64,000 nt of DNA. Source: an uncultured Pseudomonadota bacterium (GTDB lineage: Bacteria > Pseudomonadota > Gammaproteobacteria > Methylococcales > Methylomonadaceae). Position 1 is the stretch's first letter, and every line of letters starts with the position of its first letter. The notes under the pieces are model-generated. The model did no database searches and was not told the DNA's origin. It saw nothing but the letters and a program-made list of their open reading frames with translations. Made by a program: the position numbers and the translations under genes. The DNA lies in assembly GCA_903867225.1 (NCBI GenBank), contig CAIPQN010000042.1, positions 102,992 to 166,991 of the forward strand, given 5' to 3'. Shown here piece by piece: positions 13,773 through 52,359 of the stretch.

Positions 13773-13774
13773 TT

Positions 13775-35348: not shown

Positions 35349-35422
35349 GCCTCGGTAGCTCAGTAGGATAGAGCGATCCCCTCCTAAGGGATAGGTCAGT
35401 GGTTCAATTCCGCTTCGGGGCG
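35349..35422 (+). tRNA. tRNA-Arg (anticodon CCU)
   Basis: Hand-folded cloverleaf. Acceptor GCCTCGG/TCGGGGC (two G-U pairs), D-arm GCTC-AGTAGGATA-GAGC, anticodon arm ATCCC-CTCCTAA-GGGAT, variable loop AGGTC, T-arm AGTGG-TTCAATT-CCGCT, discriminator G. CCA is not encoded. Confidence 0.88.
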
Positions 35423-35534
35423 CGATATCAGCATCCAATACAATCCAAAAACATCCATAACCCCGCAAGTTATCTGACTTAGTGGGTTTTTTATTGTCTT
35501 GTAGTGTCTAATATAATCTATTGACATCCCCCCG

Positions 35535-35699
35535 CGATAGTCCGTGCAAACCAGTACAGGTGATAAAAATCAATAAGATACAGAAAAATCATTTTTGACT
35601 GTAATTTTTTAACACATTGAAAACTAATGAATTTAAGAAAATCGATTTGTTTATTTCGCTTGAAATTAACCTACCTACACTGGTTTGTAGGGACTATCG
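35535..35699. repeat. Inverted pair of a ~27-nt hairpin-containing element flanking ~110 bp of AT-rich DNA (REP-like or MITE-like)
   Basis: 35535-35561 CGATAGTCCGTGCAAACCAGTACAGGT versus the reverse complement of 35673-35699, CGATAGTCCCTACAAACCAGTGTAGGT (23/27 identical). The right copy contains a perfect CCTACA-ctggtt-TGTAGG hairpin. Confidence 0.7.
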
Positions 35700-35841: not shown

Positions 35842-35870
35842 CACCTGCATTGGTTTTTGAGGGGCTATCC
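35842..35870 (+). repeat. Third, more diverged copy of the same element (direct with the 35673 copy)
   Basis: CACCTGCATTGGTTTTTGAGGGGCTATCC compared with (CA)CCTACACTGGTTTGTAGGGACTATCG. About 70 nt upstream of the MCO start codon. Confidence 0.5.
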
Positions 35871-35941
35871 AGTCTCCTAGGCGTAATTGGTGCATGACAA
35901 TATTTGAGCGTTTTAAAACAAGATTCTAAGTAAGGGTTATC

Positions 35942-37657
35942 ATGTACAATCGTGTTATGTTCCGAAAATTAAAATCTGTTGAGTTTATGTTTAAAAAATA
36001 CTTTGTTCTTAGTTTGTTGGTAATTGTGACTGCGTTAATTATTGTAACTACCCAATGGTTTCCTATCATTAAAAAGCATGCGCGTGAAATTCCACCCACA
36101 ACAGTTTTTAGTAACGCTGATAACGCAAATATCGAAAAACCGTGTACGGATGAGCGTATTGAATGGCGTGATGCACAAGAAATTGAAGGCGTAAAAATTT
36201 CTGCATCACCTGCATGTGAGCCTGATAATCCTTACACAATTGCGACTGCTGTCAAAGGAACGAATAACGTGTCGATGATGACGCTAATGCAAAGTAATCT
36301 TGCACAAGATGCTATTACGATGGGCGAAGATTTGGACAAAGACGGCGATCCTGACGAAATCTACATCAAATTAGAAGTTGTTGAATTAAATGGTTTTAGC
36401 CCAGATGGCGATTATTTAATGAATACTTATAATATCGCACCAGGTTTGCAGCCTTCTTTGTGGGTATTTGCACCAAAAATGCAGGGCATGGCGGTGAAAA
36501 ATTTTAATTCGCAGGTGGCCCATCCGTTATTACGTGCGCCTTCACCCGTTATTCGTGTTGAACAAGGCGACAAAGTTTTTATCACGCTAGAAAACACGCA
36601 TTATTTGCCACACACGATTCATTTACATGGTGTTGATCATCCGTTTTTGACTGCGGCAGGTCATGATAATGATGGCATGGAAGAACACGCCGTTTTTCCA
36701 GGTAAGCAGCACACTTACGAAATTCAACCACGTCATGCAGGAACGATGCTCTATCATTGCCACGTTCAAACGGCTCAACATTTCATGATGGGTTTGAATG
36801 GAATGTTTATTGTCGAAGAAAATGCGCCAAATAATTGGGTACAAACATTTAATATCGGGGCAGGACAGGTGCGTCATTCTGCTGTTCATGTTCAGAAAAA
36901 TTACGATCAAGAATACGATTTGCACTATCAATCGATAGATAAAGAACTCGCCAAAATTCCTCAAGAAGCTAATGATCCACGCTTAATTAGTCAAAAAATG
37001 AGTCGTGATTACAATATGACGACATCGAATGAAAATTATTTTTTACTTAATGGACATTCGTTTCCTTACACCTTGCGTGATGCAATGATCGTTGTGAATG
37101 AAAATGAACGTGTAAAAATACACGCAGCTAATTTACAACGTTCGCCAATTGCAGTGCATTTTCATGGGCATAAAGCCACAATCACTGCTTACGACGGCGT
37201 TGATGCACCACAAGGTTTGCAATTAACTCGCGATGTTTTTGATATTTCACCTGCACAACGTTTAGATTTATCACTTAATACAAAAAATGACGGTTTAAAT
37301 AGTTACGGCGCGGGGCTTTGGATGTTTCATGACCACACACCCACGGGGACAACTACTGACGGTATGGAACCAGGTGGAAATATCACATTACTTGCATACA
37401 AATCATTTTTAGACGCGCAAGGAATGCCAAAAATGCACGATGAACTTTTTAATGATGTCTTTAATAAAGAGTACTACGCAAAACAACGACCGCTTTGGGC
37501 AAATGGCGAATGGGCAAGTTTCTTTGGTGATGCAGGAAAAGTTACACCAAATTATAGTGAGTTGATTGCATTTTGTGCGGTGATTGGTTTGTTAATTGGC
37601 GCATTTATTTTGACGCTGCATATTTATTTACAAAATAGAATTCATGAAAAAAAATAA
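35942..37657 (+). CDS. Membrane-anchored two-domain multicopper oxidase (T1 site in domain 1, i.e. type-C-like 2dMCO)
   Basis: 571 aa with hydrophobic segments at both ends (FVLSLLVIVTALIIV; LIAFCAVIGLLIGAFILTL). Copper motifs: HTIHLHG, YHCHVQTAQHFMMG (His-Cys-His plus His/Met), VHFHGH, and MFHDH (no Cys in domain 2). No twin-arginine motif was seen. Confidence 0.8.
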   Translation: MYNRVMFRKLKSVEFMFKKYFVLSLLVIVTALIIVTTQWFPIIKKHAREIPPTTVFSNADNANIEKPCTDERIEWRDAQEIEGVKISASPACEPDNPYTIATAVKGTNNVSMMTLMQSNLAQDAITMGEDLDKDGDPDEIYIKLEVVELNGFSPDGDYLMNTYNIAPGLQPSLWVFAPKMQGMAVKNFNSQVAHPLLRAPSPVIRVEQGDKVFITLENTHYLPHTIHLHGVDHPFLTAAGHDNDGMEEHAVFPGKQHTYEIQPRHAGTMLYHCHVQTAQHFMMGLNGMFIVEENAPNNWVQTFNIGAGQVRHSAVHVQKNYDQEYDLHYQSIDKELAKIPQEANDPRLISQKMSRDYNMTTSNENYFLLNGHSFPYTLRDAMIVVNENERVKIHAANLQRSPIAVHFHGHKATITAYDGVDAPQGLQLTRDVFDISPAQRLDLSLNTKNDGLNSYGAGLWMFHDHTPTGTTTDGMEPGGNITLLAYKSFLDAQGMPKMHDELFNDVFNKEYYAKQRPLWANGEWASFFGDAGKVTPNYSELIAFCAVIGLLIGAFILTLHIYLQNRIHEKK

Positions 37658-38288
37658 ATTTTTAATTGTGCTTTTGTTGACGATTTCACAATCAAGTTTT
37701 GCGACCATGCAAATGGACGAAAAAGGCATGGTGATGAATGCGAATCCCGATAATTTGCCAAAAGATTGCCCTCAAATTTCTGAAACAGTGGATTTGACGA
37801 TTCACGCTGGGCATAAATATGCGACGAAATTTAACGACAAAATGTTTGCTTTTGATCAACAACAATGGGATGTGAAACCGTGCGCTAAAATAAATATTAC
37901 GTTTATCAATGATGATCAAATTCGTCACCAATTTATGATTCATGGTTTACCTGGTTATTTGTATCCTGATGGAATGTTACATTTGGAACTTTATGGTGAA
38001 GGAGAATTGCACGCGAGTTTAATTATGCCTAGCAAAAAAAAGACATATTTGGTGCATTGCGAGTTGGCACAGCATGCGGAAAAAGGAATGAAAGCGCAGT
38101 TAAAAGTAGGGGGGGGGGATGGTGATTTGCCAAGCGTTCCTGGGATTACTTCGCCAATAAAAGAAAATCCTTATTTGTTTGATTGGACAGTATTTAAACT
38201 AGGAGGAATAGTTATTTTATTTGCTATTTCAGTAATTACAATTGGAGGACGCGGACTAATAATGCGTTATTTTGATCGGCATAAATGA
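37644..38288 (+). CDS. Membrane-tethered type-1 (blue) copper protein, cupredoxin fold
   Basis: 214 aa. Signal peptide (..LLLTISQSSFA), candidate T1 ligands IRHQFMIHG ... HCELAQHAEKGM (Cys-x4-His-x4-Met), a Gly-rich linker, and a C-terminal TM (LGGIVILFAISVITIGG). 14-bp overlap with the MCO gene. Confidence 0.75.
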   Translation: MKKNKFLIVLLLTISQSSFATMQMDEKGMVMNANPDNLPKDCPQISETVDLTIHAGHKYATKFNDKMFAFDQQQWDVKPCAKINITFINDDQIRHQFMIHGLPGYLYPDGMLHLELYGEGELHASLIMPSKKKTYLVHCELAQHAEKGMKAQLKVGGGDGDLPSVPGITSPIKENPYLFDWTVFKLGGIVILFAISVITIGGRGLIMRYFDRHK

Positions 38289-38359
38289 ATGAGTTTTTTA
38301 TTTGATTTTGTGTATAAAAAGATTGTGTGTCATTTAGAAAATTATTTAGAGCATTGTTG

Positions 38360-38387
38360 TTGACAACAAAGAATGAACTGGTAGACT
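38360..38387 (+). promoter_or_regulatory. Candidate sigma-70 promoter for pmoCAB: TTGACA-N16-TAGACT
   Basis: Perfect -35 hexamer and 4/6 -10 hexamer, about 120 nt upstream of the pmoC ATG. By-eye call only. Confidence 0.35.
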
Positions 38388-38507
38388 TGCAACCGCTAAA
38401 TGGAGTTGCGACAATTTGACGCAGATAACGTTCAAATTGTGCAGAAATGGATGTTGAAAACATTGACTCCCGAAAAATCGGGGATTTAGTAATTTTAGGA
38501 GGTAGAA

Positions 38508-39260
38508 ATGGCAGCTACAACTGAATCAGTGAAAGCTGATGCTGCGGAAGCACCGCTTTTAAACAAAAAAAATATGTTCGCAGGCGCAGCACTTTACATC
38601 GTGTTTTACGCATGGGTTCGTTGGTATGAAGGTGTCTACGGCTGGTCAGCTGGTTTAGATTCATTCGCACCTGAATTTGAAACATACTGGATGAACTTCA
38701 TGTACATCGAGATGGTTCTTGAAGTTATAACTGCATCTGTATTGTGGGGTTATATCTGGAAAACTCGTGACCGTAAAGTGATGTCAATCACTCCACGTGA
38801 AGAATTAAGAAGACATTTCACACATTGGATTTGGTTGGTAATGTATGCTATCGCAGTTTACTACGGCGCATCTTACTTCACTGAACAAGATGGTACATGG
38901 CACCAAACAATCGTTCGTGATACCGACTTTACTCCAAGTCACATCATTGAATTTTACTTGAGCTACCCAATCTATATTATTACTGGTGTTTCTGCGTTCT
39001 TATATGCAAAAACAAGATTGCCAACCTACCAACAAGGTTTGTCTTTACAGTACATGGTATCAGTTATCGGTCCTTTCATGATTCTTCCAAACGTAGGTTT
39101 GAATGAATGGGGTCACACTTTCTGGTTCATGGAAGAATTATTCGTTGCTCCTTTACACTACGGTTTCGTATTCTTCGGATGGGCTACTTTAGGTGTATTA
39201 GGTGTTGTGAATACAGAAGTTGGCGCATTGTCAAAACTTTTGAAAAAAGACTTAGCGTAA
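38508..39260 (+). CDS. pmoC: Particulate methane monooxygenase subunit C
   Basis: 250 aa with strong AGGAGG RBS. PmoC/AmoC-type sequence (YAWVRWYEGVYGWSAGLDSFAPEFETYWMNFMY..., TWHQTIVRDTDFTPSHIIEFY, EWGHTFWFMEELFVAPLHYGFV). A gammaproteobacterial AMO cannot be formally excluded without a phylogeny. Confidence 0.95.
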   Translation: MAATTESVKADAAEAPLLNKKNMFAGAALYIVFYAWVRWYEGVYGWSAGLDSFAPEFETYWMNFMYIEMVLEVITASVLWGYIWKTRDRKVMSITPREELRRHFTHWIWLVMYAIAVYYGASYFTEQDGTWHQTIVRDTDFTPSHIIEFYLSYPIYIITGVSAFLYAKTRLPTYQQGLSLQYMVSVIGPFMILPNVGLNEWGHTFWFMEELFVAPLHYGFVFFGWATLGVLGVVNTEVGALSKLLKKDLA

Positions 39261-39280
39261 TCTAAGCTCTCGGTTGTAAT

Positions 39281-39337
39281 TACTATCTCCCGCTGCCTTA
39301 TCTTTATTTGGTAAGGCAGTAAAAGAGGCAGATAGTA
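39281..39337 (+). other. Nested stem-loop in the pmoC-pmoA spacer (possible processing/stability element)
   Basis: Outer stem TACTATCT/AGATAGTA (39281-88 / 39330-37) and inner stem CTGCCTTA/TAAGGCAG (39293-39300 / 39312-19). Confidence 0.4.
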
Positions 39338-39373
39338 AAAATAAAAATAATTTAAATCCTTAGGAGGTAAGCT

Positions 39374-40123
39374 ATGAGCGCATCTCAATCAGCTGTACGG
39401 TCACGTGCTGAAGCAGTAAAAGTTTCACGCACATTTGACTGGATGATTTTGTTTACGTTGTTCTTCGTTGTATTAGGTGGTTACCATATTCACTATATGT
39501 TAACTGGCGGTGATTGGGATTTTTGGACTGATTGGAAAGATCGTCGTCTATGGGTAACAGTTGCACCAATCGTGTCAATTACTTTCCCTGCTGCTGTTCA
39601 AGCATGTTTGTGGTATCGCTACCGTTTGCCGTTTGGCGCAGTAGTTTGTGTATTAGGCTTGTTATTAGGTGAATGGGTTAACCGTTACTTAAACTTCTGG
39701 GGCTGGACATACTTCCCAGTTAACTTCTGCTTCCCTTCAAACTTGATTCCTGGTGCTATCGTATTAGACGGCATTATGTTATTAGGTGGCAGCATGACCT
39801 TGACTGCTGTTGTTGGCGGTTTGGCATGGGGCTTATTGTTCTACCCAGGTAACTGGCCAATCATTGCTCCATTACATGTTCCTGTTGAATACAACGGCAT
39901 GATGATGACTTTGGCTGACTTACAAGGTTACAACTATGTTAGAACTGGTACACCTGAATACATCCGTATGGTTGAAAAAGGTACATTAAGAACTTTCGGT
40001 AAAGACGTTGCTCCTGTATCTGCGTTCTTCTCTGGTTTCGTAAGTATCATTATCTACTTCTTGTGGCACTTCTTTGGTCGTTGGTTTGCTGGTACAAGTT
40101 TCGTCAGCAGCGAAAACATCTAA
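39374..40123 (+). CDS. pmoA: Particulate methane monooxygenase subunit A
   Basis: 249 aa with AGGAGG RBS. Near-collinear by eye with type I PmoA (MSASQSAVRSRAEAVKVSRTFDWM..GDWDFWTDWKDRRLWVTV...NWPIIAPLHVPVEYNGMMMTLADLQGYNYVRTGTPEYIRMVEKGTLRTFGKDVAPVSAFF). Confidence 0.96.
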   Translation: MSASQSAVRSRAEAVKVSRTFDWMILFTLFFVVLGGYHIHYMLTGGDWDFWTDWKDRRLWVTVAPIVSITFPAAVQACLWYRYRLPFGAVVCVLGLLLGEWVNRYLNFWGWTYFPVNFCFPSNLIPGAIVLDGIMLLGGSMTLTAVVGGLAWGLLFYPGNWPIIAPLHVPVEYNGMMMTLADLQGYNYVRTGTPEYIRMVEKGTLRTFGKDVAPVSAFFSGFVSIIIYFLWHFFGRWFAGTSFVSSENI

Positions 40124-40152
40124 TTGTAAGAATTTTTCCACTAGGGGGATAT

Positions 40153-41397
40153 ATGAAATTATTAAAAGACAAAGTAGCTAAATTGTCATTTGTCGCATTG
40201 TTGGCGGCATCATCAGCTGCAATGCTTTACACACCAACAGCTGCTGCTCACGGTGAAAAATCACAAGCAGCGTTCATGCGTATGCGTACTATTCACTGGT
40301 TTGACATGAATTGGTCAAAAGAAGAAGTGAAAGTTAACGATACAATGACACTTTCTGGTAAATTCTTTGTTTTTCAAGGTTGGCCAGAAACTGTTGATAA
40401 ACCAGAAGTTGCTTTCTTAAACGTTGGTGAGCCTGGTGCTGTGTTCATTCGTCAAGGTTCTTGGATTGGTGGTCAATTAGTGCCACGTTCAGTATCTTTA
40501 GAATTGGGCGAAACCTACGAATTCAAAGTATTGTTGAAAGCACGTCGTCCAGGTGACTGGCACGTTCATGCGATGATGAACGTTCAAGGCGGTGGTCCAA
40601 TTATTGGTCCTGGTAAATGGACAACCATTACTGGATCTATGAGAGACTTCGTTAACCCTGTTACTACTTTGACAGGTGAAACTCTTGATCTTGAAACTTA
40701 CAACTTAGAAAACACTTACTTCTGGCACGCTTTATGGTATGCCTTAGGTTTAGCGTGGTTAGCTTACTGGATTCGTAAACCAATGTTCATTCCGCGTTCA
40801 ATCGCGATTGAATCAGGTAAAGCGAATACTTTGATTACAGCCACCGACAGAAAAGTTGGTATGGCGTTTGTAGCTGGTACTATTGCAATCGTTGCAACAG
40901 CTATGACATCAACAAATGAAAAATACCCAATTACAACACCATTACAAGCTGGTTTGTTACGTGGTATGAAACCATTTGAAATGCCTGCTAAAACTGTTAC
41001 TGTTAAAGTTGAAGACGCAACATACCGTGTACCAGGTCGTGCTATGCAAATGACCTTGAAAATCACTAACAATGGCGATTCTGCCGTTCGTTTAGGTGAA
41101 TTCAACACTGCTTCTGTTCGTTTCTTAGACTCAGCGGTATTAGAAGATACAACTAGCTATCCAGATGACTTGTTGGCTGAAGATGGTTTAACTGTTAGCG
41201 ATAACAGTCCATTAGCTCCAGGTCAAACAAGAACTGTTCAAGTTACTGCGTCTGACGCGGCTTGGGAAGTTTACCGTTTAGCAGATTTGATTTATGATCC
41301 AGACAGCCGTTTTGCTGGTTTGTTGTTCTTCTTTGATGAAGCTGGTAAACGTCAAATGATTACTGTGGATGCACCGTTAATTCCTGTATTCATCTAA
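40153..41397 (+). CDS. pmoB: Particulate methane monooxygenase subunit B
   Basis: Start set at ATG 40153 (MKLLKDKVAKLSF.., GGGGGA RBS). Signal peptide ends ..TAAA, followed by HGEKSQAAFMRMRT (N-terminal His ligand). Also DWHVHAMMNVQGGGP (His-x-His). The track start 40063 would overlap pmoA. Confidence 0.96.
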   Translation: MKLLKDKVAKLSFVALLAASSAAMLYTPTAAAHGEKSQAAFMRMRTIHWFDMNWSKEEVKVNDTMTLSGKFFVFQGWPETVDKPEVAFLNVGEPGAVFIRQGSWIGGQLVPRSVSLELGETYEFKVLLKARRPGDWHVHAMMNVQGGGPIIGPGKWTTITGSMRDFVNPVTTLTGETLDLETYNLENTYFWHALWYALGLAWLAYWIRKPMFIPRSIAIESGKANTLITATDRKVGMAFVAGTIAIVATAMTSTNEKYPITTPLQAGLLRGMKPFEMPAKTVTVKVEDATYRVPGRAMQMTLKITNNGDSAVRLGEFNTASVRFLDSAVLEDTTSYPDDLLAEDGLTVSDNSPLAPGQTRTVQVTASDAAWEVYRLADLIYDPDSRFAGLLFFFDEAGKRQMITVDAPLIPVFI

Positions 41398-41426
41398 TCG
41401 TTTAGCGCAAGCTATCTGAAAAGACA

Positions 41427-41462
41427 AAACCCCCATTGTTTTAAAACAGTGGGGGTTTTTTT
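41427..41462 (+). terminator. Rho-independent terminator after pmoB
   Basis: AAAACCCCCATTG-ttttaaaa-CAGTGGGGGTTTT followed by additional T residues, about 30 nt after the stop codon. Confidence 0.8.
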
Positions 41463-41659: not shown

Positions 41660-43234
41660 ATGACAAACATTCATTCAGACAAAATTTTAATTCTTGATTT
41701 CGGTTCACAGTACACGCAGTTAATTGCCCGTCGCATTCGTGAAATTGGCGTGTATTGCGAAATTTATTCGTGCGAATGCACCGATGCTGAAATTCAAAAT
41801 TTCGCACCAAAGGGTATCATCTTATCGGGCGGTCCAGAAAGTGTCACTGAAGGCAATACGCCACGTGCGCCACGCAGTGTTTTTGAGTTAGGCGTTCCTG
41901 TTTTAGGGATTTGCTACGGAATGCAAACGATGACCGAACAACTCGGTGGCAAAGTTGAAACCTCCAATCACCGCGAATTTGGTTACGCACAAATTCGAGC
42001 GCGTGGACATTCCAAATTATTGTCGGGTATCGAAGATCATCTTTCAGAAGAAGGTTTTGGCTTGCTGGATGTTTGGATGAGTCACGGCGACCGCGTGGTG
42101 GATTTGCCTGAAGGATTTAAATTGATTGCCAGTTCAGAAGGTGCTCCAATTGCAGGCATGGCGAATGAGGACAAAAATTTCTACGCGCTGCAATTTCATC
42201 CCGAAGTCACACACACCAAACAAGGCGGACGGATTTTGTCACGTTTTGCGTTAGAAATTTGTGGTTGTGCGGCGTTGTGGAATTCCAACAACATCATCGA
42301 GGATAGTATTAAAGCTGTTCGTGAAAAAGTCGGTAATGACGAAGTGATTTTAGGATTATCAGGCGGCGTAGATTCATCAGTGGTGGCTGCGTTATTACAC
42401 AAAGCTATTGGCTCGCAACTTATCTGCGTTTTTGTAGATACGGGTTTATTGCGCTTGAATGAAGGCGACCAAGTGATGGCAATTTTTGCTGAAAATCTAG
42501 GCGTGAAAGTGATTCGTGTGAACGCCGAAGAACGTTATTTAACGGCATTAGCAGGCGAAAATGACCCAGAAAAAAAACGTAAAATTATTGGAAATTTGTT
42601 TATTGAAATTTTTGATGAAGAAGCTGCAAAATTAGCTAACGCTAAATGGCTCGCACAAGGCACGATTTATCCTGATGTGATTGAATCGGCGGGTGCGAAA
42701 AGTGGTAAAGCGCATTTAATCAAATCGCATCACAACGTTGGAGGCTTGCCTGAAAATATGACCTTGAAATTGGTTGAACCTTTGCGCGAATTATTCAAGG
42801 ACGAAGTGCGAAAATTAGGCGTAGAACTTGGTTTGCCAGCGGATATGGTTTATCGTCATCCGTTCCCTGGACCTGGATTGGGGGTACGAATTTTGGGTGA
42901 AGTGAAAAAAGAATTTGCCGATTTATTACGTCAAGCCGATGCAATTTTTATCGAAGAGCTTTATAGAAATGATTTATACGACAAAGTGAGTCAAGCGTTT
43001 GCGGTTTTTTTACCCGTTAAATCCGTTGGCGTAATGGGTGACGGGAGACGTTATGATTATGTGATTGCGATTAGAGCGGTGGAAACCATCGATTTTATGA
43101 CCGCTCGCTGGGCGCATTTGCCGTATGAATTTTTAGATTTGATTTCACGCCGAATTATTAACGAAGTCGCTGGAATTTCGCGTGTCACTTACGACATTTC
43201 TGGTAAGCCACCCGCCACAATTGAATGGGAATAA
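41660..43234 (+). CDS. guaA: GMP synthase (glutamine-hydrolysing)
   Basis: 524 aa. GATase domain ([31 protein letters not shown]), ATP-PPase SGGVDSSV, and C-terminal ..[10 protein letters not shown]. Confidence 0.97.
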
Positions 43235-43360: not shown

Positions 43361-46261
43361 ATGACAAATCAAACATTGACTTCATTTGCAACACAATTAA
43401 CATCGACAGTAGGTAGTACGCCTTATGCAGTAGTTACTGGCGATTTAAATCACGATGGTAAAATTGATTTAATTACCGCTAATTCAGAAGGAAACACAGT
43501 TTCAGTTTTATTGCGTAATGCTGCTAACACAGGTTTTAATAGCAAAATTGATTATACAACCAGTAATAATCCCGTAGATGTTTGTGTTGGTGATTTTAAT
43601 GGTGATGGAAAACTTGATTTAGCAACAGCAAATCAAAGAAGCAACAATGTATCGGTGTTATTACGAAACTCAACTAACACAGAGTTTGATACAAAAATTG
43701 ATTATGTAACGGGGTCAAGTCCATCTGTTATTGGCGCAGGCGATTTTAATCATGACGGAAAAATTGACCTTGCTGTTGTTAATTCTATAAGTAACACGGT
43801 TTCCATATTTTTACGCAATACAATTAACACTGATTTTGAAACGCGGGTTGATTACACAACAGGTGCTACACCTTCTTCAATAGCCATTGGCGATGTCAAT
43901 AATGATGGCAACTCAGATTTAGTCATTGCCAATAGTTCTGCCAATACCATATCAATTTTATTGGGTAATGGAACAGGCGGATTTGCTAATAAAAAAGATT
44001 ACGTTACAGGAACATCGCCAATTTCTGTTTGTGTCGGTGATTTTAATGGAGATGGAAAAGTTGATTTTGCTGCGGCGAATCTTTTTAGTAATAACATTTC
44101 GGTCTTTTTACGAAATTCAGCAAACACTGATTTTGAAAATAAATCTGATTACGCTGCTATAAATCCTTATTCAATTAGTGCAACTGATTTTAATGACGAT
44201 GGAAAAACGGATTTAAGCGTTGCGAACAATTTTAGTCACAGCGTTTCAGTGTTTTTACGGAGTACAGATAATTCACGTTTTGATGCGAACATTGATTACG
44301 CGACAGACTCCTATCCGCGTTCTGTTAAAGCTGCCGACTTTAACGGCGACGGTAAAATAGATTTAGTGACTGCAAATAGTGGTGACAACGATGTTTCGGT
44401 TTTACTTAATACATCAGTCACAATTGATTCTTCGTTAGTCCCTCAAACCCTACCTACGGGTCTGGTTATTATTTCGGGAAATACAGCACAAAATGAAACA
44501 TTAACAGCAAGTAATAATCTAAGCGACATCAATGGGCTAGGTGAAATTAGCTATCAATGGTTAAAAAATGGTATTTCGCTTAGAGGGGCAAATAGCGCGA
44601 ATTATGTATTAACGCAAGCCGATGTTGGAAAAACGATTAGTGTAATTGCACGTTACATAGATGGCATTGGTGCAACAGAAAGTGTTTCAAGTAATGCCAC
44701 TGTAACTATTTCAAACGTTAATGATATGCCGACAGGTGCTGTCATAATTACAGGTACTGCAAAACAAAATGAAACATTGACCGTTTCAAATTTTTTAGCA
44801 GATGTTGATGGAATTGGTGTAATAAATTATCAATGGTTGCGTGATGGCGTAATTATCACAGGAGCAAATCAAGAAACATATTTGCTAACACAAACGGATG
44901 CAAATAAAAAAATAACTGTTAGCGCGAGTTACATTGATGGGTTCGGTACATTTGAAAGTATTTTGAGCGAAACTACATCGAATGTTGAAGCTGTGATTGT
45001 TAAACCAATTGAACCCGTTGTCGTTGTTAAACCAATTGAACCTGTTGTCGTTGTTAAGCCAATTGAACCTGTTGTCGTTGTTAAACCAATTGAACCCGTT
45101 GTCGCTGTTAAACCGATTGAGCCTGTTGTCGTTGTTAAACCAATTGAGCCTGTTATCGTTGTTAAACCGATTGAACCTGTTATCGTTGTTAAACCGATTG
45201 AACCTGTTGTCGTTGTTAAACCAATTGAAACTGTTGTCGTTGTTAAACCGATTGAACCTGTTGTCGTTGTTAAACCGATTGAACCTGTTGTCGTTGCTAA
45301 ACCAATTGAGCCTGTTGTCGTTGTTAAACCAATTGAACCCGTTGTCGTTGCTAAACCAATTGAACCTGTTGTCGTTGTTAAACCAATTGAACCTGTTGTC
45401 GTTGTTAAAGCGATTGAGCCTGTTGTCGTTTTTAAACCGATTGAACCCGTTGTCGTTGTTAATAATAAACCTACAGGAAGTATCGCTATTACTGGTCAAG
45501 TGGAAGAAAAACAGACCTTATCAATTAACAACACTCTTGCAGATAAAGATGGTTTAGGCGATTTTCATTATCAGTGGCTCCGTTCAGGTAAAATTATTGA
45601 ACAAGCAAATCAGGAAAAATACACGTTAATTCAAGATGATGTAGGTAAAAAAATCAGCGTAACCGTAAGTTTCACAGATAATAAAGGAACGGTTGAATCC
45701 AAAACAAGTGCTTCAACTTTAATGGTAAAAGATAGTCCGATTCAAGGTGAGATCAAAACAGGTGATGCTAAAAATAATACAATTATTGGTACTAATAAAA
45801 ATGATTTGCTACTTGGTTTAGCTGGAAGGGATACGCTTAATGGCGGTGCAGATAACGACACCTTGAGCGGTGGAGATGGTAACGATAGTTTAATCGGTGG
45901 ACTTGGATTTGATGAATTAACAGGTGGTGCGGGAGCTGATAAATTTGTTTTTACTGCACTTGCTGATGCTTCATTTTCAAAAACAAAAATGGACAAAATT
46001 ACTGATTTTAGTTTGGTAGAAAAAGATAAAATTGATCTTTCCAAAATTGATGCAAATAGTATTCAAACAGGCAATCAAGCATTTTCAAAACTCGTTATCG
46101 GGAAAACTTTTATGAATAACGAGTTTACAAAACAAGGTCAATTATTTTTTGCCAGTGATAGTGGAATTTTATATGGCAATGTGGATAAAGACAGTTCCGC
46201 CGAATTTGCGATTAAAATAAGTGGCATTACAAATTTAGCCGTGACAGACATTATTTTGTAA
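43361..46261 (+). CDS. Secreted FG-GAP (seven-blade propeller) / YQW-repeat / Pro-Val-rich stalk / RTX protein, probable T1SS substrate
   Basis: Seven GDxNxDGKxDLxxAN...VSVLL blades. Three ~90-aa repeats with ..G.I.YQWL..G..I.GAN...Y.L...D.GK.I. Then 17x KPIEPVVVV. RTX nonapeptides (GGADNDTLSGGDGNDSLIGGLGFDELTGGAGADKF) and a serralysin-type C-terminus (DKITDF..DKIDLS...AVTDIIL). Confidence 0.85.
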   Translation: MTNQTLTSFATQLTSTVGSTPYAVVTGDLNHDGKIDLITANSEGNTVSVLLRNAANTGFNSKIDYTTSNNPVDVCVGDFNGDGKLDLATANQRSNNVSVLLRNSTNTEFDTKIDYVTGSSPSVIGAGDFNHDGKIDLAVVNSISNTVSIFLRNTINTDFETRVDYTTGATPSSIAIGDVNNDGNSDLVIANSSANTISILLGNGTGGFANKKDYVTGTSPISVCVGDFNGDGKVDFAAANLFSNNISVFLRNSANTDFENKSDYAAINPYSISATDFNDDGKTDLSVANNFSHSVSVFLRSTDNSRFDANIDYATDSYPRSVKAADFNGDGKIDLVTANSGDNDVSVLLNTSVTIDSSLVPQTLPTGLVIISGNTAQNETLTASNNLSDINGLGEISYQWLKNGISLRGANSANYVLTQADVGKTISVIARYIDGIGATESVSSNATVTISNVNDMPTGAVIITGTAKQNETLTVSNFLADVDGIGVINYQWLRDGVIITGANQETYLLTQTDANKKITVSASYIDGFGTFESILSETTSNVEAVIVKPIEPVVVVKPIEPVVVVKPIEPVVVVKPIEPVVAVKPIEPVVVVKPIEPVIVVKPIEPVIVVKPIEPVVVVKPIETVVVVKPIEPVVVVKPIEPVVVAKPIEPVVVVKPIEPVVVAKPIEPVVVVKPIEPVVVVKAIEPVVVFKPIEPVVVVNNKPTGSIAITGQVEEKQTLSINNTLADKDGLGDFHYQWLRSGKIIEQANQEKYTLIQDDVGKKISVTVSFTDNKGTVESKTSASTLMVKDSPIQGEIKTGDAKNNTIIGTNKNDLLLGLAGRDTLNGGADNDTLSGGDGNDSLIGGLGFDELTGGAGADKFVFTALADASFSKTKMDKITDFSLVEKDKIDLSKIDANSIQTGNQAFSKLVIGKTFMNNEFTKQGQLFFASDSGILYGNVDKDSSAEFAIKISGITNLAVTDIIL
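44999..45460 (+). repeat. Tandem repeat, 27-bp unit x ~17 (encodes VKPIEPVVV), near-identical copies
   Basis: GTTAAACCAATTGAACCTGTTGTCGTT is iterated with scattered synonymous or conservative changes (P->T, V->I/A/F). It generates long spurious ORFs in other frames and on the other strand. Confidence 0.95.
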
Positions 46262-48167
46262 CACCAGATTGATTGACTGGCGCAATGACTCGATGAAGAA
46301 TGGAAGGTGCAGTACGTCCTTTTAATAAACAATCGCCAACAACTTCGGTTTGATACAAATCACGAACGTAGTCGTAAGTTAAATCACCAATCAAAATACG
46401 ACAGGGATTTTCTTTTGTAGGGGGCGCAATGGTTTTATCAAAACTTTCAAAGCGCGAGGCAGTATTTACCGTATCACCAATCACGGTATATTCCATACGT
46501 TTTGAACTGCCAAAACTTCCCGCAACCACTGAACCTGTATAAATACCCGTTCGCATAGTTACTTCAGGCAAGCCTTGTGCTTTCCAACGAGCATTAAGAT
46601 CAACTAAATGACGATTAAATTCTACAGCGCAGGCAACTGCTTGACGGGCATCATTAGCAATACCTTCCTCAGAATCACGTTTAACGGGAACACCAAAAAT
46701 TGCCATAATCGCATCGCCAATATACTTATCAACCATGCCACCATGTTCCATCACAAGATTGCTCATGACTTCCATGTATTCATTGAGCCAATTCATCAAA
46801 ACCAGCGGCTGCATTTTTTCAGCAATCGTTGTGAAATTAGACAAATCCGTAAAAAGCACTGTTGCAGTTAGCGTGTCGGGTTTAATGCCATTTGCACTGA
46901 AAAATTCTTCCCGCACTTCCCATAAATGCGTAGCGACTTCTGGTGAAACGTGACGTGAAAATAATTGCATCAGTTGTCCGCGCTCGGCTCGACTTCGCGT
47001 GAAAAAATAAAACACGCTTAAAAACATCGACAATGTCCAGCCCAGTAATGGCGAAACGAAAGGCAACCACCAACTTTCATTCAACAAAAAGATGTTAATA
47101 CCAACAAGTAAAAATATCTGAACAGTAACTAAGAATAAAAATTGTAAAACGCCTGCACGAAACAATCCTGTCATCGCACCCAATAAACACCATAAAAGTA
47201 ACCAGCCATATTCAAAACGGTCAGACATCGCTTGCAAAGGCTGTTTTTTTTGTGTTGCTATGTTAAGTAATTGACTGACAAAATAGGCATGATGCTCAAT
47301 ACCGTAACGGGTTATTTGATTAGGAAGCAGCCAAAAATCTTGCAAACTCGGAGCCATTGCACCAAATAACACGATTTTATCTTTGAGTGCATCTTTTGGA
47401 ATTTTGTCATCGAGTAAATCAGAAAGTGTAAACGTCCGAAAAGATTGCGGTAGGGCGGGGAATTCAAGCATTGCTTGATAACCACCTGTATCCGCGTGAC
47501 GATACACCCCAAAATTTGGATCAATTTTGGGAACTGCAATTCCGTTAAGATTTAAATTTTGTTGTTCGTCAATTTGAACGGGGATATTGTCCGCTGCCAA
47601 ATAATGAAGACTGATAAGCAATGGAAACGAGTAATAACTACTTTCACCTACATCTAAAAACAATAAACCACGACGACTGACACCGTCAGGGTCTTCGATA
47701 ATGTTATTAAATGCTGTTTTCAACGGATTACCCGCTATTGCGGCTGGTGCTTGAACAAATGTTTGTGTTGAATTACCAGCAAAGAAAATCCATACGATAT
47801 TACTATTTTTTTCCAGCACATTTTTGAGATTATCTGTGCCAGGCGCAACGGGTAAGTCACGATATTTATCAATGCCAATAACCCGCGTGCCTTCGGTTTC
47901 TAATTTTTGCACCGCGTCAGCAAATACTTGATCCGATAATGGATGACCATAACGACGAATATCAGGCTCAGTTTCACCAATTACCGTAATTCGATCATCA
48001 ATTTTCAGTTCGGGACGTTGCAATAATTGTTGATCAAACGCCCGCAATTCTAAACCTTGCAATACGCCTGTGGATTGCAGCCCAAAAAGAATAATCGACG
48101 TGGCAAAACCAAGCAAAATGCAGATTAAAATCGAATGCTGCAACCATTTTTTAAGTAACTTTTTCAC
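46251..48167 (-). CDS. CHASE2 sensor domain - class III adenylate cyclase
   Basis: 638 aa. N-terminal TM, a periplasmic CHASE2-like region of about 300 aa, then 3 TM segments. Cyclase domain: TVLFTDLSNFTTIAE, GGMVDKYIGDAIMAIFG, YTVIGDTVNTASRFES. The Lys/Thr substrate pair suggests ATP. GTG start. The 3' end overlaps the convergent 966-aa gene by 11 bp. Confidence 0.85.
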   Translation of the reverse strand: MKKLLKKWLQHSILICILLGFATSIILFGLQSTGVLQGLELRAFDQQLLQRPELKIDDRITVIGETEPDIRRYGHPLSDQVFADAVQKLETEGTRVIGIDKYRDLPVAPGTDNLKNVLEKNSNIVWIFFAGNSTQTFVQAPAAIAGNPLKTAFNNIIEDPDGVSRRGLLFLDVGESSYYSFPLLISLHYLAADNIPVQIDEQQNLNLNGIAVPKIDPNFGVYRHADTGGYQAMLEFPALPQSFRTFTLSDLLDDKIPKDALKDKIVLFGAMAPSLQDFWLLPNQITRYGIEHHAYFVSQLLNIATQKKQPLQAMSDRFEYGWLLLWCLLGAMTGLFRAGVLQFLFLVTVQIFLLVGINIFLLNESWWLPFVSPLLGWTLSMFLSVFYFFTRSRAERGQLMQLFSRHVSPEVATHLWEVREEFFSANGIKPDTLTATVLFTDLSNFTTIAEKMQPLVLMNWLNEYMEVMSNLVMEHGGMVDKYIGDAIMAIFGVPVKRDSEEGIANDARQAVACAVEFNRHLVDLNARWKAQGLPEVTMRTGIYTGSVVAGSFGSSKRMEYTVIGDTVNTASRFESFDKTIAPPTKENPCRILIGDLTYDYVRDLYQTEVVGDCLLKGRTAPSILHRVIAPVNQSGVTK

Positions 48168-52000: not shown

Positions 52001-52359
52001 TTGATACTTTAACAGGCGGTGGTGGTACTGATACTTTTAGCGATACTTTCATGTTTGATTCTCTAATGGATATGGGAGCCGCTACGCGCCGCGATGTGGT
52101 TACGGATTTCCAAACGGGTGTAGATAAAATTGATATGTATGGTACTTTCACCTTAACAGGTTCTGCTGGAACTTTAGGCACAGCTCCATTTACTACGACG
52201 GCAAATCAAATTCGTTGGTCGTTTTATGGTGATGGAATAGCTAATCCTTATTATGCAGTTGTTCAAGGCAACACAGATACGAATCCCGCGACAGTTGAAT
52301 TTGAAATTAAATTAAATGGCGTGACGGCACTTGCGGCAGGTGATTTTATTTTGACGTAA
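49027..52359 (+). CDS. Large RTX calcium-binding protein with cadherin-like and VCBS-like modules, probable T1SS substrate
   Basis: 1110 aa. Three N-terminal Thr/Ala-rich ~90-aa modules. A cadherin-like module (GTEDVIIPIMLSAVDMDGS..FKPNANWNGTTAFNYVAVDNNN..VPDAPT). A VCBS-like block (NWNFDI..LLNGESINFSYQIEATDSNN). Repeated ..DTVQS.V.YTLP.NVENLTL.G.. units with GGAGADVLTGGAGDD nonapeptides. C-terminal ..VTALAAGDFILT. Confidence 0.85.
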   Translation: MALTITRNQGAASVAGVAEVATATFGYLGAGFTFTLAGITISDSSGSTAVDAADAFYLYATGTATSAYPYITFSGVLSTDYSVSHTNGSNILTFSGKTPSNLNDLSATGANGGNPNTIAVAITTQGVAPTLGVTETTDVGFVDLVAGEKLTIGGLTVTATATVTAANVAAAFASTATGNTTTGLTFSGSLIGFTSSAVSNGNHVVFTSVTSNSNVDDLVVNYSPVITTIPINGTEDVIIPIMLSAVDMDGSVASFKVTNLPTDGVLYLDVNLTMPVTTVNSSITTASNTLNLYFKPNANWNGTTAFNYVAVDNNNAESTPATQNIDVNPVPDAPTIGTPPISSIAITQGTVSTHETAVVTFAALNKGDFFTLNGVSVYATNAATATQVAAVFSNLSINSHFNNDVLFGKLVLNGTMYPEYGAGVASGSTVTFTSPTNSNMPDLALMGTGVTLLEAPTLTATGSFPINDVDFATGGDTVSVEVAGVNVSGYSPNGNGNAASLAALLNNSSTSFLLLSPETLTANGNVNWNFDIANIPDFASLLNGESINFSYQIEATDSNNAVSWTTLNFNVQGKTQILDATSVDGLLANGSAEQQVATVTVQTENGTLIRLFDTSTGLDVTNKFNLGYDVAKDLNAGIKTLTFELKDGVGYNGTKSLIAKSFLDADTGFSSVQSTFTVPSFTIPDGADVYYGTTGNDLITGSAGSDTLSGGLGDDTYFINDANNVIVEDSITGGGFDTVHSTVSYTLPLNVENLFLGGNTAINGTGNTVGNNWIHGNDAVNTLDDGGSAPSLPTIGNIAPDTLSGGKGSDIYIVHSSGTMVMGETNIGGVDTVQSFVNFVLPKNVENLTLMGTLNASGKGNNLANIIIGNTGNNTLDGGAGADVLTGGAGDDLYIIDRATDVVDETVTGSGGTDTVQSIVTYTLPANVENLTLVGLATISGIGNVADNVIIGNGAANTLNGDAGNDILRGDNGNDSLIGGAGSDTLIGGIGVDTLTGGGGTDTFSDTFMFDSLMDMGAATRRDVVTDFQTGVDKIDMYGTFTLTGSAGTLGTAPFTTTANQIRWSFYGDGIANPYYAVVQGNTDTNPATVEFEIKLNGVTALAAGDFILT

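Follow-up and report, generated by a model that had tools for sequence, protein, structure and literature searches.

Two genes directly upstream of pmoCAB in the 64-kb stretch of DNA analysed here (the window) encode a multicopper oxidase (MCO) and a membrane-tethered cupredoxin. Our best explanation, a tentative one, is that the pair is an O2-dependent periplasmic oxidase that belongs with the copper-handling genes of copper monooxygenases and probably oxidises Cu(I).

The upstream edge of the locus is a plus-strand tRNA-Arg(CCT) gene (35349..35423, ARAGORN). The mechanical ORF call for the MCO is 35942-37657 on the plus strand (571 aa), which is the length the original prediction had used. 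Homologs begin at Met16 of this ORF, and a conserved −10-like box, GTGTACAAT, overlaps its first 15 codons. Taken together, these two observations place the start most likely at 35987, giving a gene of 35987..37657 and a protein of 556 aa, and we use this numbering below. The cupredoxin gene follows at 37644..38288 (plus strand, 214 aa), sharing 14 bp with the MCO ORF. It is separated by a 219-bp spacer from pmoC (38508..39260; PF04896 at 1.5e-123, NF041641), which is followed by pmoA (39374..40123; PF02461 at 7.4e-129) and pmoB (40153..41397; PF04744 at 1.8e-190), all on the same strand. A strong intrinsic terminator with a 15-bp stem and a T-run lies 3′ of pmoB (41426..41459, plus strand), and guaA (41660-43234) lies beyond it. 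Thus the predicted order, gene overlap, spacer and tRNA boundary were all reproduced. The predicted lack of pmoD/amoD and copCD also holds, as homologs of PmoD, CopC, CopD and YcnI were not found within the whole window. No copper-responsive regulator adjoins the MCO–cupredoxin pair. As for the non-coding repeats predicted upstream, the repeat search found just one pair of 27-nt inverted repeats in the tRNA–MCO spacer (35535-35561 and 35673-35699, no strand; arms 85% complementary, 111 nt apart). This element (35535..35699) is probably outside the module.

The pair has a promoter-like box of its own, apart from the promoter of pmoCAB. The −10-like box at 35941..35949 (plus strand) reads ATGTACAAT in the window, while most relatives have GTGTACAAT in the alignment upstream of the MCO gene (16 loci). 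It lies about 40 nt 5′ of the conserved MCO start codon and is a candidate promoter of the pair; in loci L012-L017 the alignment has a hairpin and a T-run immediately 5′ of it. The sigma-70 promoter of pmoCAB (38360..38387, plus strand; TTGACA, 16 nt with TG, TAGACT; 10/12 matches in a consensus scan) lies in the 219-bp spacer and is identical in the window and in 16/16 aligned pmoCAB-linked loci. An A/T-rich block 5′ of this promoter is also conserved in the same alignment. The pmoC 5′ leader (38388..38507, plus strand) is conserved by alignment and sequence, and has a small hairpin at about 38467-38484, right before the ribosome-binding site.

The large protein belongs to the type-C two-domain MCOs and has a membrane anchor at each end. 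It matches Cu-oxidase_3 (1.5e-21), Cu-oxidase_2 (1.4e-18) and Cu-oxidase (1.2e-4) in Pfam. From the N-terminus it consists of a signal-anchor helix, an extension with a Cys pair and DxDxDGDPD, cupredoxin domain 1, a linker, cupredoxin domain 2, and, at the C-terminus, a transmembrane helix with a basic tail. The anchors (aa 1-29, 35987..36073, Kyte-Doolittle mean 2.26, AF2 helix 2-32; aa 522-550, 37550..37636, mean 2.8, AF2 helix 523-555; both plus strand) agree with the original prediction. So does the absence of a Tat motif at the N-terminus, where MFKKYF has Lys-Lys instead of Arg-Arg. All eight histidines of the trinuclear cluster predicted over the two domains are present and were located, all on the plus strand. 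Domain 1 carries the T1 site and half of the cluster: HTIHLHG (aa 209-215, 36611..36631; motif position and alignment to 3G5W) provides the T1 ligand H209 and the cluster ligands H212 and H214, and is found in 208/218 long homologs. The alignments further assign to HCHVQTAQHFMMGL (aa 257-270, with HCH at 257; 36755..36796) the cluster ligands H257 and H259, the T1 ligands C258 and H265, and L270 in the axial position. The other half of the cluster is in domain 2, in HFHGH (aa 391-395, 37157..37171) and HDH (aa 448-450, 37328..37336), both placed by motif position and alignment; since there is no cysteine at HDH, this domain is without a T1 site. The single T1 site predicted in domain 1 therefore stands, but its axial residue is Leu (L285 in the 571-aa ORF) and not a methionine of 'FMM', and the complete ligand set with axial Leu is kept in 208/218 long homologs. 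In other MCOs an axial Leu at T1 leads to a high redox potential. By analogy, Leu at this position implies that the T1 copper would be three-coordinate and of high potential. By sequence, the closest solved structures, both type-C two-domain MCOs, are 3G5W (1e-25), which is the Nitrosomonas europaea oxidase that the original prediction named as a comparable two-domain MCO, and 2ZWN (3.9e-25). The same two structures are also the best solved matches by fold, in Foldseek with the AF2 model (pLDDT 70.4; TM-score 0.73 normalised to target). By homology, the MCO would be expected to form a trimer whose trinuclear clusters lie at the subunit interfaces.

The small protein has a signal peptide, a Met-rich arm, a single cupredoxin domain, a Gly/Pro linker and, at the C-terminus, a transmembrane helix (aa 177-208, 38172..38267, plus strand; Kyte-Doolittle mean 2.29, AF2 helix 181-213), as expected from the original prediction. 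Pfam matches, to Cu-oxidase_2 and Copper-bind, are weak. The AF2 model (pLDDT 72.9) has a cupredoxin fold, with auracyanin, laccase T1 domains and AcoP as Foldseek matches. In the Met-rich segment MQMDEKGMVM (aa 22-31, 37707..37736, plus strand) M22, M24 and M31 are invariant in the family alignment. A comparable stretch comes before the fused cupredoxin domains and before the CopD-fused copy described below. RHQFMIHG (aa 94-101, 37923..37946, plus strand; alignments) provides the T1 ligand H95, and its M98 and H100 stand at the positions of cluster histidines in MCO domain 1. The remaining T1 ligands C139, H144 and M149 are in HCELAQHAEKGM (aa 138-149, 38055..38090, plus strand; Pfam, alignments), where H138 and E140 flank the cysteine. 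Met98, His100 and His138 form a conserved triad beside the T1 cysteine, and the T1 set is kept in almost all of 226 domains. Judged from these alignments, the cupredoxin and MCO domain 1 are paralogs, and the cupredoxin retained the classical T1 site (His95, Cys139, His144, Met149).

Genomics shows that the MCO and the cupredoxin work together, and they would form one functional unit, a periplasm-facing, membrane-tethered copper oxidase. This follows from their being found together and being fused elsewhere. More specifically, the cupredoxin gene lies 3′ of the MCO gene in 78/80 related genome loci, that is in every locus reaching past the MCO stop codon, as the remaining two end before or at it. 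Fusions of the two, with either one first, occur in 7/11 distant clusters examined, and haloarchaea are among the lineages in which they form a single protein.

Adjacency of the pair to pmoCAB is restricted to one clade and is missing in most relatives that have the pair. MCO–cupredoxin–pmoCAB is found in 13/13 informative genome loci of one monophyletic clade of lake Methylococcaceae, where both flanks of the five-gene block differ and the block itself is kept. Among metagenome contigs, which were retrieved with the pmoCAB sigma-70 promoter as the search pattern, the cupredoxin gene lies upstream of this promoter in 11/11, and the MCO gene is present on the nine long enough to show it. Outside the clade, about 45 informative loci from Methylobacter, Methylovulum, Crenothrix and Methylocucumis lack the adjacency. 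Lack of the adjacency in related genomes, which the original prediction named as evidence against its reading, is observed in part. Intact homologs in haloarchaea also speak against a tie to copper monooxygenases, as the one locus inspected has none in the 8 kb to its left or right. Unlinked pairs (Methylobacter tundripaludum, M. psychrophilus, Methylovulum, Crenothrix, Methylocucumis) sit among housekeeping genes. Their standing alone would fit a general periplasmic oxidase of the Methylobacter group, for copper detoxification or another task, whose place at pmoCAB is a vertically inherited lineage accident with no specific tie to pMMO. The separate promoter elements and homologs in haloarchaea (intact), Halomonas, SAR324, Gemmatimonadales and others are also in its favour. 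We nevertheless consider it unlikely, because the five-gene block stays while both flanks change, the arrangement is kept in all the metagenome contigs, and the family is tied to copper monooxygenases a second time.

This second, independent linkage has another gene order. A distant contig of 61% GC carries pmoCAB-pmoD-MCO-ycnI-copC-copD::cupredoxin, with pmoC/A/B 63/61/50% identical to those of the window, PmoD at 3e-22, an MCO 45% identical to ours, then DUF1775/YcnI and CopC, and a CopD fused to a cupredoxin (42% identical, 2e-54). Elsewhere PmoD itself is fused to the MCO (2.4e-15 to 6CPD), and the cupredoxin gene comes after this fusion; both fusions argue against a general oxidase. In the window's own clade pmoD-copC lies just 3′ of pmoB, and 11-12 clade loci carry CopC and a homolog of PmoD (8e-14 to 6CPD) there. 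A CopA-type ATPase is found 0.9-6.8 kb from the pair in 14 loci and NlpE nearby in 6. A wider branch carries 1-3 fused CusF Cu(I)-binding domains, and the loci of these forms add little extra context. YcnI and C0-1 CopC are Cu(II) binders (PMC8424229). Without pmoD, growth is impaired in a copper-dependent manner, and MCO genes lie beside the genes of some PmoD classes (PMC6189053). Some family members at least are apparently non-catalytic, since two PmoD-linked copies (L103 and L104) have lost nearly all copper ligands.

Another possibility, which we regard as improbable, is that the pair oxidises hydroxylamine or nitrogen oxides and clears NH2OH formed by ammonia co-oxidation at pMMO. Its model is the archaeal MCO4 enzyme Nmar_1354, the closest architectural analog. 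There a two-domain MCO carries a pendant T1 cupredoxin, in parallel to our pair, and the enzyme oxidises hydroxylamine, not copper (PMC11761707). The pair shares its domain logic with 9CCK (Foldseek match 2.4e-17; PMC11761707), 3G5W comes from a nitrifier, and the pair adjoins the enzyme that would make NH2OH. However, the fusions and neighbours (CusF, CopD, CopC, YcnI, PmoD) belong to copper and not nitrogen chemistry, the sequence match to 9CCK is far weaker than that to 3G5W (7.7e-11 vs 1e-25), and the one haloarchaeal locus inspected has no copper monooxygenase in the 8 kb to its left or right.

The original prediction offered an electron-transfer or a Cu(I)/Cu(II)-handling module. The copper half is supported by the distant pmoCAB cluster, the PmoD::MCO fusion, pmoD-copC in the clade and the CusF fusions, while for the pair as electron donor of pMMO no support was found in this analysis. 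That the tethered cupredoxin is the physiological donor, or a link between pMMO and the respiratory chain with the MCO as its redox buffer, seems a poor prospect. The pair and pMMO do have strand, compartment and membrane tethering in common, there is no terminator between the cupredoxin gene and pmoC, and archaeal copper monooxygenases co-locate with blue copper proteins (PMC9038741). On the other hand, the MCO passes electrons to O2, so that reductant would be wasted; most genomes have the pair away from pmoCAB; and in the sequences seen the partner domain is joined to MCO, CusF or CopD, and in no case to a Pmo subunit. T1 redox potentials also lie high for a protein that would have to supply electrons for O2 activation at pMMO. 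Least probable is an oxidase of another metal or organic substrate, such as an Fe(II), Mn(II) or laccase-type phenol oxidase of oxygen-poor lake water: some sources tag homologs 'manganese oxidase', ferroxidases such as Fet3p also have an axial Leu at T1 and one relative carries a fused cytochrome c domain, but the tags are automatic annotations, that relative has lost the T1 cysteine, iron or manganese genes were found in none of the contexts, and the fusions to copper-specific domains point elsewhere.

We therefore return to copper oxidation as the preferred reading. Electrons would enter at the cupredoxin, whose T1 copper would hand them to the T1 copper of the MCO, and would move on to the trinuclear cluster and finally to O2. 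The substrate would most likely be periplasmic Cu(I), free or carried by a chaperone, and the product would be Cu(II), which is what CopC-, YcnI- and PmoD-type chaperones bind. The pair would be neither a subunit nor a reductant of pMMO; it may maintain the copper around pMMO in the redox state that supply and protection call for. In this lineage its genes lie directly upstream of pmoCAB with a promoter-like box of their own, and pmoCAB has the separate sigma-70 promoter described above. As the two proteins are elsewhere fused to each other and to known copper-handling proteins, the pair is a candidate, open to testing, for control of the copper on which methane oxidation depends.

The two genes read directly upstream of pmoCAB are both borne out as open reading frames on the plus strand, at 35942-37657 (571 aa) and 37644-38288 (214 aa), with an overlap of 14 bp. 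A spacer of 219 bp separates the second from pmoC (38508-39260), which is followed by pmoA (39374-40123) and pmoB (40153-41397); all three are recognised by Pfam with E-values from 1e-123 to 1e-190. A terminator with a 15-bp stem (41426-41459) lies 3' of pmoB and guaA lies downstream of it, as the original prediction had placed them. The same prediction was right that PmoD, CopC and CopD are not encoded in the 64-kb window; YcnI is not encoded there either. On the other side, a tRNA-Arg(CCT) gene (35349-35423) lies 5' of the pair and a flagellar gene cluster upstream of that tRNA. The first gene encodes a multicopper oxidase (MCO), the second its cupredoxin partner. Homologs of the MCO begin at the residue corresponding to Met16 of the 571-aa frame, and a conserved GTGTACAAT box overlaps codons 1-15 of that frame. 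For these reasons we take the MCO start to be 35987, which gives a protein of 556 aa, and number its residues from there unless the 571-aa frame is named. The spacer between the tRNA and MCO genes contains a pair of 27-nt inverted repeats (within 35535-35699, 111 nt apart), and a third related copy was seen by eye at about 35846-35880; lying beside a tRNA gene, these repeats may be what is left of a small mobile element. Farther along, the window encodes a secreted-type protein of 966 aa (43361-46261) with FG-GAP repeats and RTX calcium-binding repeats, in which an array at 44997-45462 holds 17.3 tandem copies of a 27-nt unit encoding (V/I)VVKPIEPV. Two very large frames at 49027-52359 (1110 aa) and 52429-61776 (3115 aa), with RTX and bacterial Ig-like domains, probably encode adhesins or surface proteins unrelated to the pair. 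The gene immediately before these two, on the minus strand at 46251-48167, is for a CHASE2-guanylate cyclase.

Regarding the MCO, its sequence matches the Pfam families Cu-oxidase_3, Cu-oxidase_2 and Cu-oxidase, and the two cupredoxin domains expected from the first reading are found at 197-294 (Cu-oxidase_3/_2) and 346-450 (Cu-oxidase) of the 571-aa frame. Its AF2 model (pLDDT 70.4, pTM 0.70) matches 2ZWN and 3G5W in a Foldseek search over about 384 alignment columns, with a TM-score of 0.73 normalised to the target; the next fold matches are other two-domain MCOs, NirKs and 9CCK. These two structures are also the nearest solved relatives by sequence, 3G5W (the N. europaea blue copper oxidase) at 1e-25 and 2ZWN (mgLAC) at 3.9e-25. 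The proposed trinuclear histidine set is complete: H212/H214, H257/H259, H391 or H393 with H395, and H448/H450. Its eight histidines form four HxH motifs, two per domain, that align to 3G5W and that 208 of the 218 long homologs retain. A single T1 site in domain 1 was likewise foreseen and consists of C258, between H257 and H259, together with H209 and H265; domain 2 has HDH and no Cys. A T1 site in domain 1 only, with the cluster split over two domains, is the type-C layout. Enzymes of this type are homotrimers that hold the trinuclear cluster at their subunit interfaces, and by homology the window MCO would assemble likewise. The axial T1 position is occupied by leucine (L270) according to three routes, namely alignment to 3G5W, profile alignment to the partner and BLAST to a fused partner domain, and the long homologs have Leu there in 208 of 218 cases and Met in 4. 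Axial T1 variation, with Leu for Met, occurs elsewhere in the MCO superfamily, so the axial Leu does not exclude type-C membership. In its core the protein is a type-C two-domain MCO, distinguished by one atypical ligand and by the anchors added to it.

Like the window MCO, 3G5W and 2ZWN have two cupredoxin domains, T1 in domain 1 only and HxH cluster motifs split over both domains. They differ from it in that both have an axial T1 Met, which the window MCO lacks, having Leu where 3G5W has Met. Moreover, the window MCO has an obligate separate T1 cupredoxin partner, and its identity to the two structures over the Foldseek alignment is 21-23%. It is about 240 residues longer than either, the additional parts being two anchors, a folded N-terminal extension and a longer linker. 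Hydropathy and the AF2 model place one TM helix at each end, which agrees with the double anchoring originally predicted, and the N-terminus carries Lys-Lys rather than the twin arginine of a Tat signal. The N-terminal extension contains a Cys pair and a DxDxDGDPD loop. This loop (residues 115-123, window 36329-36355) lies just before cupredoxin domain 1 and resembles a calcium-binding motif. It is present in neither 3G5W nor 2ZWN; its five Asp are kept in 13 of the 14 homologs checked, haloarchaeal and CusF-fused ones included, the exception being the homolog cluster P0246. Other assignments for the MCO were considered and rejected. The NirK model TIGR02376 gives 40.8 bits against a cut-off of 296.3, and the full eight-His set is present, not a three-His T2. 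The NCBIfam models for CueO (32.9 vs 525 bits) and CopA(PcoA) (39.9 vs 479 bits) also score far below cut-off, and the protein has two domains and no Tat signal.

The 214-aa partner is matched weakly by Pfam, with Cu-oxidase_2 at 1.4e-5 and Copper-bind at 16.9 bits, below its cut-off of 21.2. Its AF2 model (pLDDT 72.9) has the cupredoxin beta-sandwich fold, and the best Foldseek matches are auracyanin (1.1e-6), T1 domains of laccases, and AcoP. Auracyanin (1QHQ, 2AAN) and AcoP (7Z3B) resemble it as membrane-tethered single domains with a His/Cys/His/Met T1 site. The cupredoxin is 15-18% identical to these, its Cys-x4-His-x4-Met loop and flanking His are of MCO type, and it is encoded with or fused to an MCO. 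Neither the single protein nor a profile found a relative in the PDB by sequence, a haemoglobin match at 0.044 being noise. A cleavable-looking signal peptide and a C-terminal TM helix, both expected from the first reading, are seen in the hydropathy plot and the AF2 model. The anticipated T1 ligands H95, C139, H144 and M149 do not vary among 23 aligned orthologs and are near-universal in the 226 partner domains that we surveyed, which come from every lineage sampled. The 23 orthologs also share M22, M24 and M31 of a Met-rich arm, the Cys pair C42 and C80, and H113. By alignment, the cupredoxin is a paralog of MCO domain 1, forming a distinct subfamily derived from that domain. More specifically, H95 corresponds to the T1 His of domain 1, C139 and H144 to its T1 Cys and T1 His, and M149 to the axial position, where the MCO has Leu. 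M98 falls at the T2-type His position, and H100, H138 and E140 at T3-type His positions. Almost all of the 226 domains have the T1 set, M98 and H138, and positions 100 and 140 covary: His with Glu, Asp, Ser or Gly in Methylococcales and haloarchaea, Pro with His in the CusF-fused branch. Therefore two His and one Met always flank the partner T1 cysteine. The Met98/His100/His138 triad stands at the positions of the cluster histidines of MCO domain 1, and the number of His there stays at two through the swap between (His100, Glu140) and (Pro100, His140). These His2Met residues may form a second, Cu(I)-type metal site.

A scan with one genome per species found more than 485 relatives, and the best 80 loci were analysed. 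All 80 are from Methylococcales (Methylobacter, Methylovulum, Crenothrix, Methylocucumis and many lake MAGs). The cupredoxin gene lies directly 3' of the MCO gene in 78 of them; the remaining two break off at the MCO stop codon or ahead of it. Among 1.84 billion cluster representatives that were searched, 67 clusters fell below 1e-30. Eleven distant ones were read, and in seven the partner domain, 32-41% identical to the window cupredoxin, is fused to the MCO: C-terminally in five (P0242, P0243 of Natrinema, P0245, P0252 and P0260) and N-terminally in two (P0254 and P0256). The MCO and the cupredoxin very probably form one oxidase unit. We also looked for a conserved third gene beside the pair in the 80 genome loci, and no outside cluster occurs in more than about 21 of them. 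The recurrent neighbours are mostly housekeeping genes (dnaX, xthA, a PBP5-type carboxypeptidase, an ABC-2 transporter), so the neighbourhood in the Methylobacter group is uninformative.

The adjacency to pmoCAB holds in one clade and is absent from its sister group. MCO, cupredoxin and pmoCAB occur together in 13 of 13 loci of a clade to which the window belongs, counting loci with an MCO identity of at least 78% and enough downstream sequence (3 further loci are cut within pmoC); adjacency is also seen in 11 of 11 metagenome contigs and on the distant contig L100. In the sister group (Methylobacter, Methylovulum, Crenothrix and Methylocucumis), the roughly 45 informative loci all lack pmoCAB 3' of the pair. 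In an NJ tree the clade comes out as monophyletic, with 19 leaves; it consists of uncultured Methylococcaceae genomes, mostly from lake and other freshwater metagenomes. Its five-gene block is kept while both flanks vary, with at least four contexts upstream. Downstream of the block, the window and the loci L002, L081 and L097 have guaA; the others have a PmoD homolog there, together with CopC and a TlpA-like redoxin. A pmoC sigma-70 promoter, TTGACA-16(TG)-TAGACT (38360-38387), shows no difference between the window and any of the 16 aligned loci and is accompanied by a conserved leader; the roughly 40 nt directly 3' of the cupredoxin stop are variable and hold no terminator. A scan of metagenomes with this promoter had given the 11 contigs, all of which carry the cupredoxin gene upstream, and the MCO gene too on the 9 that are long enough. 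Since the promoter is conserved in the spacer, we consider pmoCAB to be mainly its own transcription unit, and an obligate five-gene operon is unlikely. Read-through from the pair into pmoC is possible because no terminator follows the cupredoxin gene. Public assemblies have a gene call for an antisense 75-aa frame (38236-38463, minus strand) that covers the conserved promoter and is almost certainly spurious. A hairpin in the pmoC leader (38467-38484, CTCCCG-AAAAAT-CGGGGA), just 5' of the ribosome-binding site, is kept in every one of the 16 aligned pmoCAB-linked loci as well as in the window and could influence translation or the stability of the mRNA.

The pair matches none of the PmoD, CopC and CopD families, and its link to them is through fusion and neighbourhood in other genomes. 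Past pmoB, the clade encodes an unannotated lipoprotein of about 200 aa; a profile matches it to 6CPD at 8e-14, and it is a homolog of PmoD, of the Cx9HxnC class. Its gene converges on pmoB, beside CopC and the TlpA-like redoxin, in loci L003-L017, about 3.2-4.4 kb past the cupredoxin stop (in locus L004 at 13534-14148, minus strand). As this lipoprotein is a PmoD homolog, relatives of the window carry pmoD-copC whereas the window does not. The Cx9HxnC class of PmoD was found near copC by Fisher et al. (PMC6189053), and in the same study loss of pmoD led to a copper-dependent growth defect and one PmoD class was a neighbour of MCO genes (PMC6189053). PmoD/AmoD, CopC, CopD and YcnI are copper proteins encoded with pmo/amo operons (PMC6189053, PMC8424229), and Cu(II) is bound by YcnI and C0-1 CopC (PMC8424229). 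Like the pair, they are periplasm-facing, membrane-tethered copper proteins beside copper monooxygenase operons; their folds and families are unrelated to those of the pair, and they act by binding or carrying copper, while the MCO is a redox enzyme that reduces O2.

Outside the recovered Methylococcales loci, the closest relative by BLASTP is cluster P0241 (53% identical), in which a PmoD domain (2.4e-15 against 6CPD) is fused to the MCO and the partner gene is next. The P0246 MCO, 45% identical to that of the window, is encoded on contig L100 (61% GC) in the order sigma-54 activator, pmoC, pmoA, pmoB, PmoD, MCO, DUF1775/YcnI, CopC, CopD::cupredoxin. The products of pmoC, pmoA and pmoB are there 63, 61 and 50% identical to those of the window. 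The PmoD gene (3e-22 against 6CPD) overlaps the MCO gene by 4 bp, and CopD has the partner cupredoxin as its C-terminal half (42% identity, 2e-54), with a Met-rich stretch before it. Adjacency links the pair to pmoCAB in two independent cases. The sigma-54 activator of L100 (1286-3472) has a GAF domain and, in the precomputed Pfam listing of the contig, MimR_N as well. MimR-type regulators are known from short-chain alkane and acetone monooxygenases, and for this reason the substrate of the L100 copper monooxygenase may not be methane. In a further, large branch (81 clusters) each protein carries between one and three fused CusF domains, which bind Cu(I); this branch spans Kiloniellales, SAR324, Gemmatimonadales, Methylomirabilota, Halomonas and Thermoplasmata.

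Other members of the family stand apart from such genes, and these give weight to the foremost rival explanation, that the pair is an unrelated copper oxidase or another oxidase. In cultured Methylobacter and Methylovulum the pair is standalone. Beside the pair there is no gene for a copper-responsive regulator. The loci of CusF-fused relatives, inspected for cus/cop operons, are mostly standalone too; a MerR regulator together with an additional CusF gene was seen at locus L086 only. Intact fused homologs occur in haloarchaea, and at the one such locus inspected the 8 kb to each side hold no copper monooxygenase and no copper gene lies nearby; the surroundings of the fused form at locus L102 likewise have neither. 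The recurrent links to PmoD, CopC/CopD, YcnI, CusF and pmoCAB speak for the other side, and we hold it somewhat more likely than not that the unit belongs to copper handling tied to copper monooxygenases. PmoD-like/MCO-like/cupredoxin-like triads on contigs L103 (3802-6692) and L104 (44-3225) were rejected as support for a catalytic link: the MCO (clusters P0247 and P0248) and the partner have lost almost all copper ligands, the T1 cysteines included, so these loci link the protein families and not catalysis. From their sequences the triads look like copper-less pseudo-enzymes kept beside PmoD. Another variant, P0258 (628 aa), has an N-terminal cytochrome c domain before the MCO, a C-terminal TM helix and Gly for the T1 cysteine; here electrons may enter through a haem that has taken the place of the T1 copper.

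Second in weight is the explanation that the pair oxidises hydroxylamine. It draws on MCO4 (Nmar_1354, 9CCK) of Nitrosopumilus maritimus, a two-domain MCO to whose C-terminus a T1 cupredoxin is appended; it converts NH2OH to HNO and has been called unique to ammonia-oxidising archaea (PMC11761707). MCO4 shares with the pair a two-domain MCO and an extra T1 cupredoxin feeding the MCO T1, and its host too lives by a copper membrane monooxygenase. Fused relatives of the pair (P0242, P0243 and P0245, from haloarchaea and others) have the same domain order as MCO4 while being distant from 9CCK. In the window, however, the cupredoxin is a separate membrane-anchored polypeptide and not a covalent C-terminal domain, and the sequence relation of the MCO to 9CCK is weak (7.7e-11). 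Moreover, the partner differs from MCO4 in its Met-rich arm and His2Met triad, and the context points to copper rather than hydroxylamine. A third explanation, which takes up the electron-transfer half of the original prediction, is that the pair is an electron donor to pMMO. Archaeal copper monooxygenases are co-located with blue copper proteins (PMC9038741). Least weight falls to an Fe, Mn or phenol oxidase.

Returning to copper handling, oxidation of Cu(I) has precedents. CueO, PcoA and CopA have Met-rich Cu(I)-binding segments and carry out O2-driven conversion of Cu(I) to Cu(II). They are periplasmic MCOs like that of the window and are associated with Cus/Cop genes, but they are three-domain, soluble and Tat-exported, and in the pair the Met-rich segment is on the partner, not on the oxidase. 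We suggest that electrons would pass from the T1 site of the partner, with its axial Met and presumed lower potential, to that of the MCO, with axial Leu and a higher potential, and through the trinuclear cluster to O2. Cu(I), the proposed substrate, would be caught by the Met-rich arm and the His2Met site, and the Cu(II) product would be passed to the Cu(II)-binding chaperones around pMMO. In this way the pair could curb the toxicity of Cu(I) at a membrane densely filled with a copper enzyme. That Cu(I) is the substrate we rate at slightly below even chances.

A more far-reaching version is, in our opinion, unlikely: the tethered cupredoxin might be the Cu(I)-binding half of a split cuprous oxidase, more than a passive electron relay, and the whole a bacterial oxidase-permease route of copper acquisition dedicated to copper monooxygenases, by analogy with Fet3p-Ftr1p. 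In yeast iron uptake, Fet3p is a membrane-anchored MCO with a non-coordinating axial Leu that is coupled to the permease Ftr1p and oxidises the metal before hand-off. The cupredoxin::CopD fusion on L100, a single contig, suggests a comparable coupling for copper. Fet3p differs in being three-domain, eukaryotic and specific for iron, and its homology to the window MCO is only at the level of the MCO superfamily. In such a split oxidase the Met-rich arm would capture Cu(I) and the triad would hold it one Cys-His step from the T1 copper, so that Cu(I) could be oxidised; Cu(II) would then go to PmoD, CopC or YcnI and from there, via CopD or directly, to pMMO.

How pMMO is supplied with copper and retains it, and which accessory proteins are behind the activity lost on purification, are unresolved questions. 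To our knowledge, the accessory proteins encoded beside pmo operons have so far been PmoD, CopC and CopD. The pair adds to this set a redox enzyme that is tied to PmoD, CopC/CopD, YcnI and CusF by fusion. In the searchable literature we found no description of the MCO-cupredoxin pair, whose members appear there under generic labels only, nor of the bacterial and haloarchaeal family, the form that is split and tethered twice, the putative vestigial His2Met site of the cupredoxin or the fusion and neighbourhood links to PmoD, CopD and pmoCAB. The design of a two-domain MCO with an extra T1 cupredoxin has a widespread counterpart in bacteria and haloarchaea, beyond ammonia-oxidising archaea. The pair leaves the source of pMMO copper and electrons unanswered and is a specific and tractable candidate for the copper half of that question, and culturable Methylobacter and Methylovulum strains carry it. 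It offers a concrete hypothesis, namely that the redox state of copper may be controlled at the methane-oxidising membrane.
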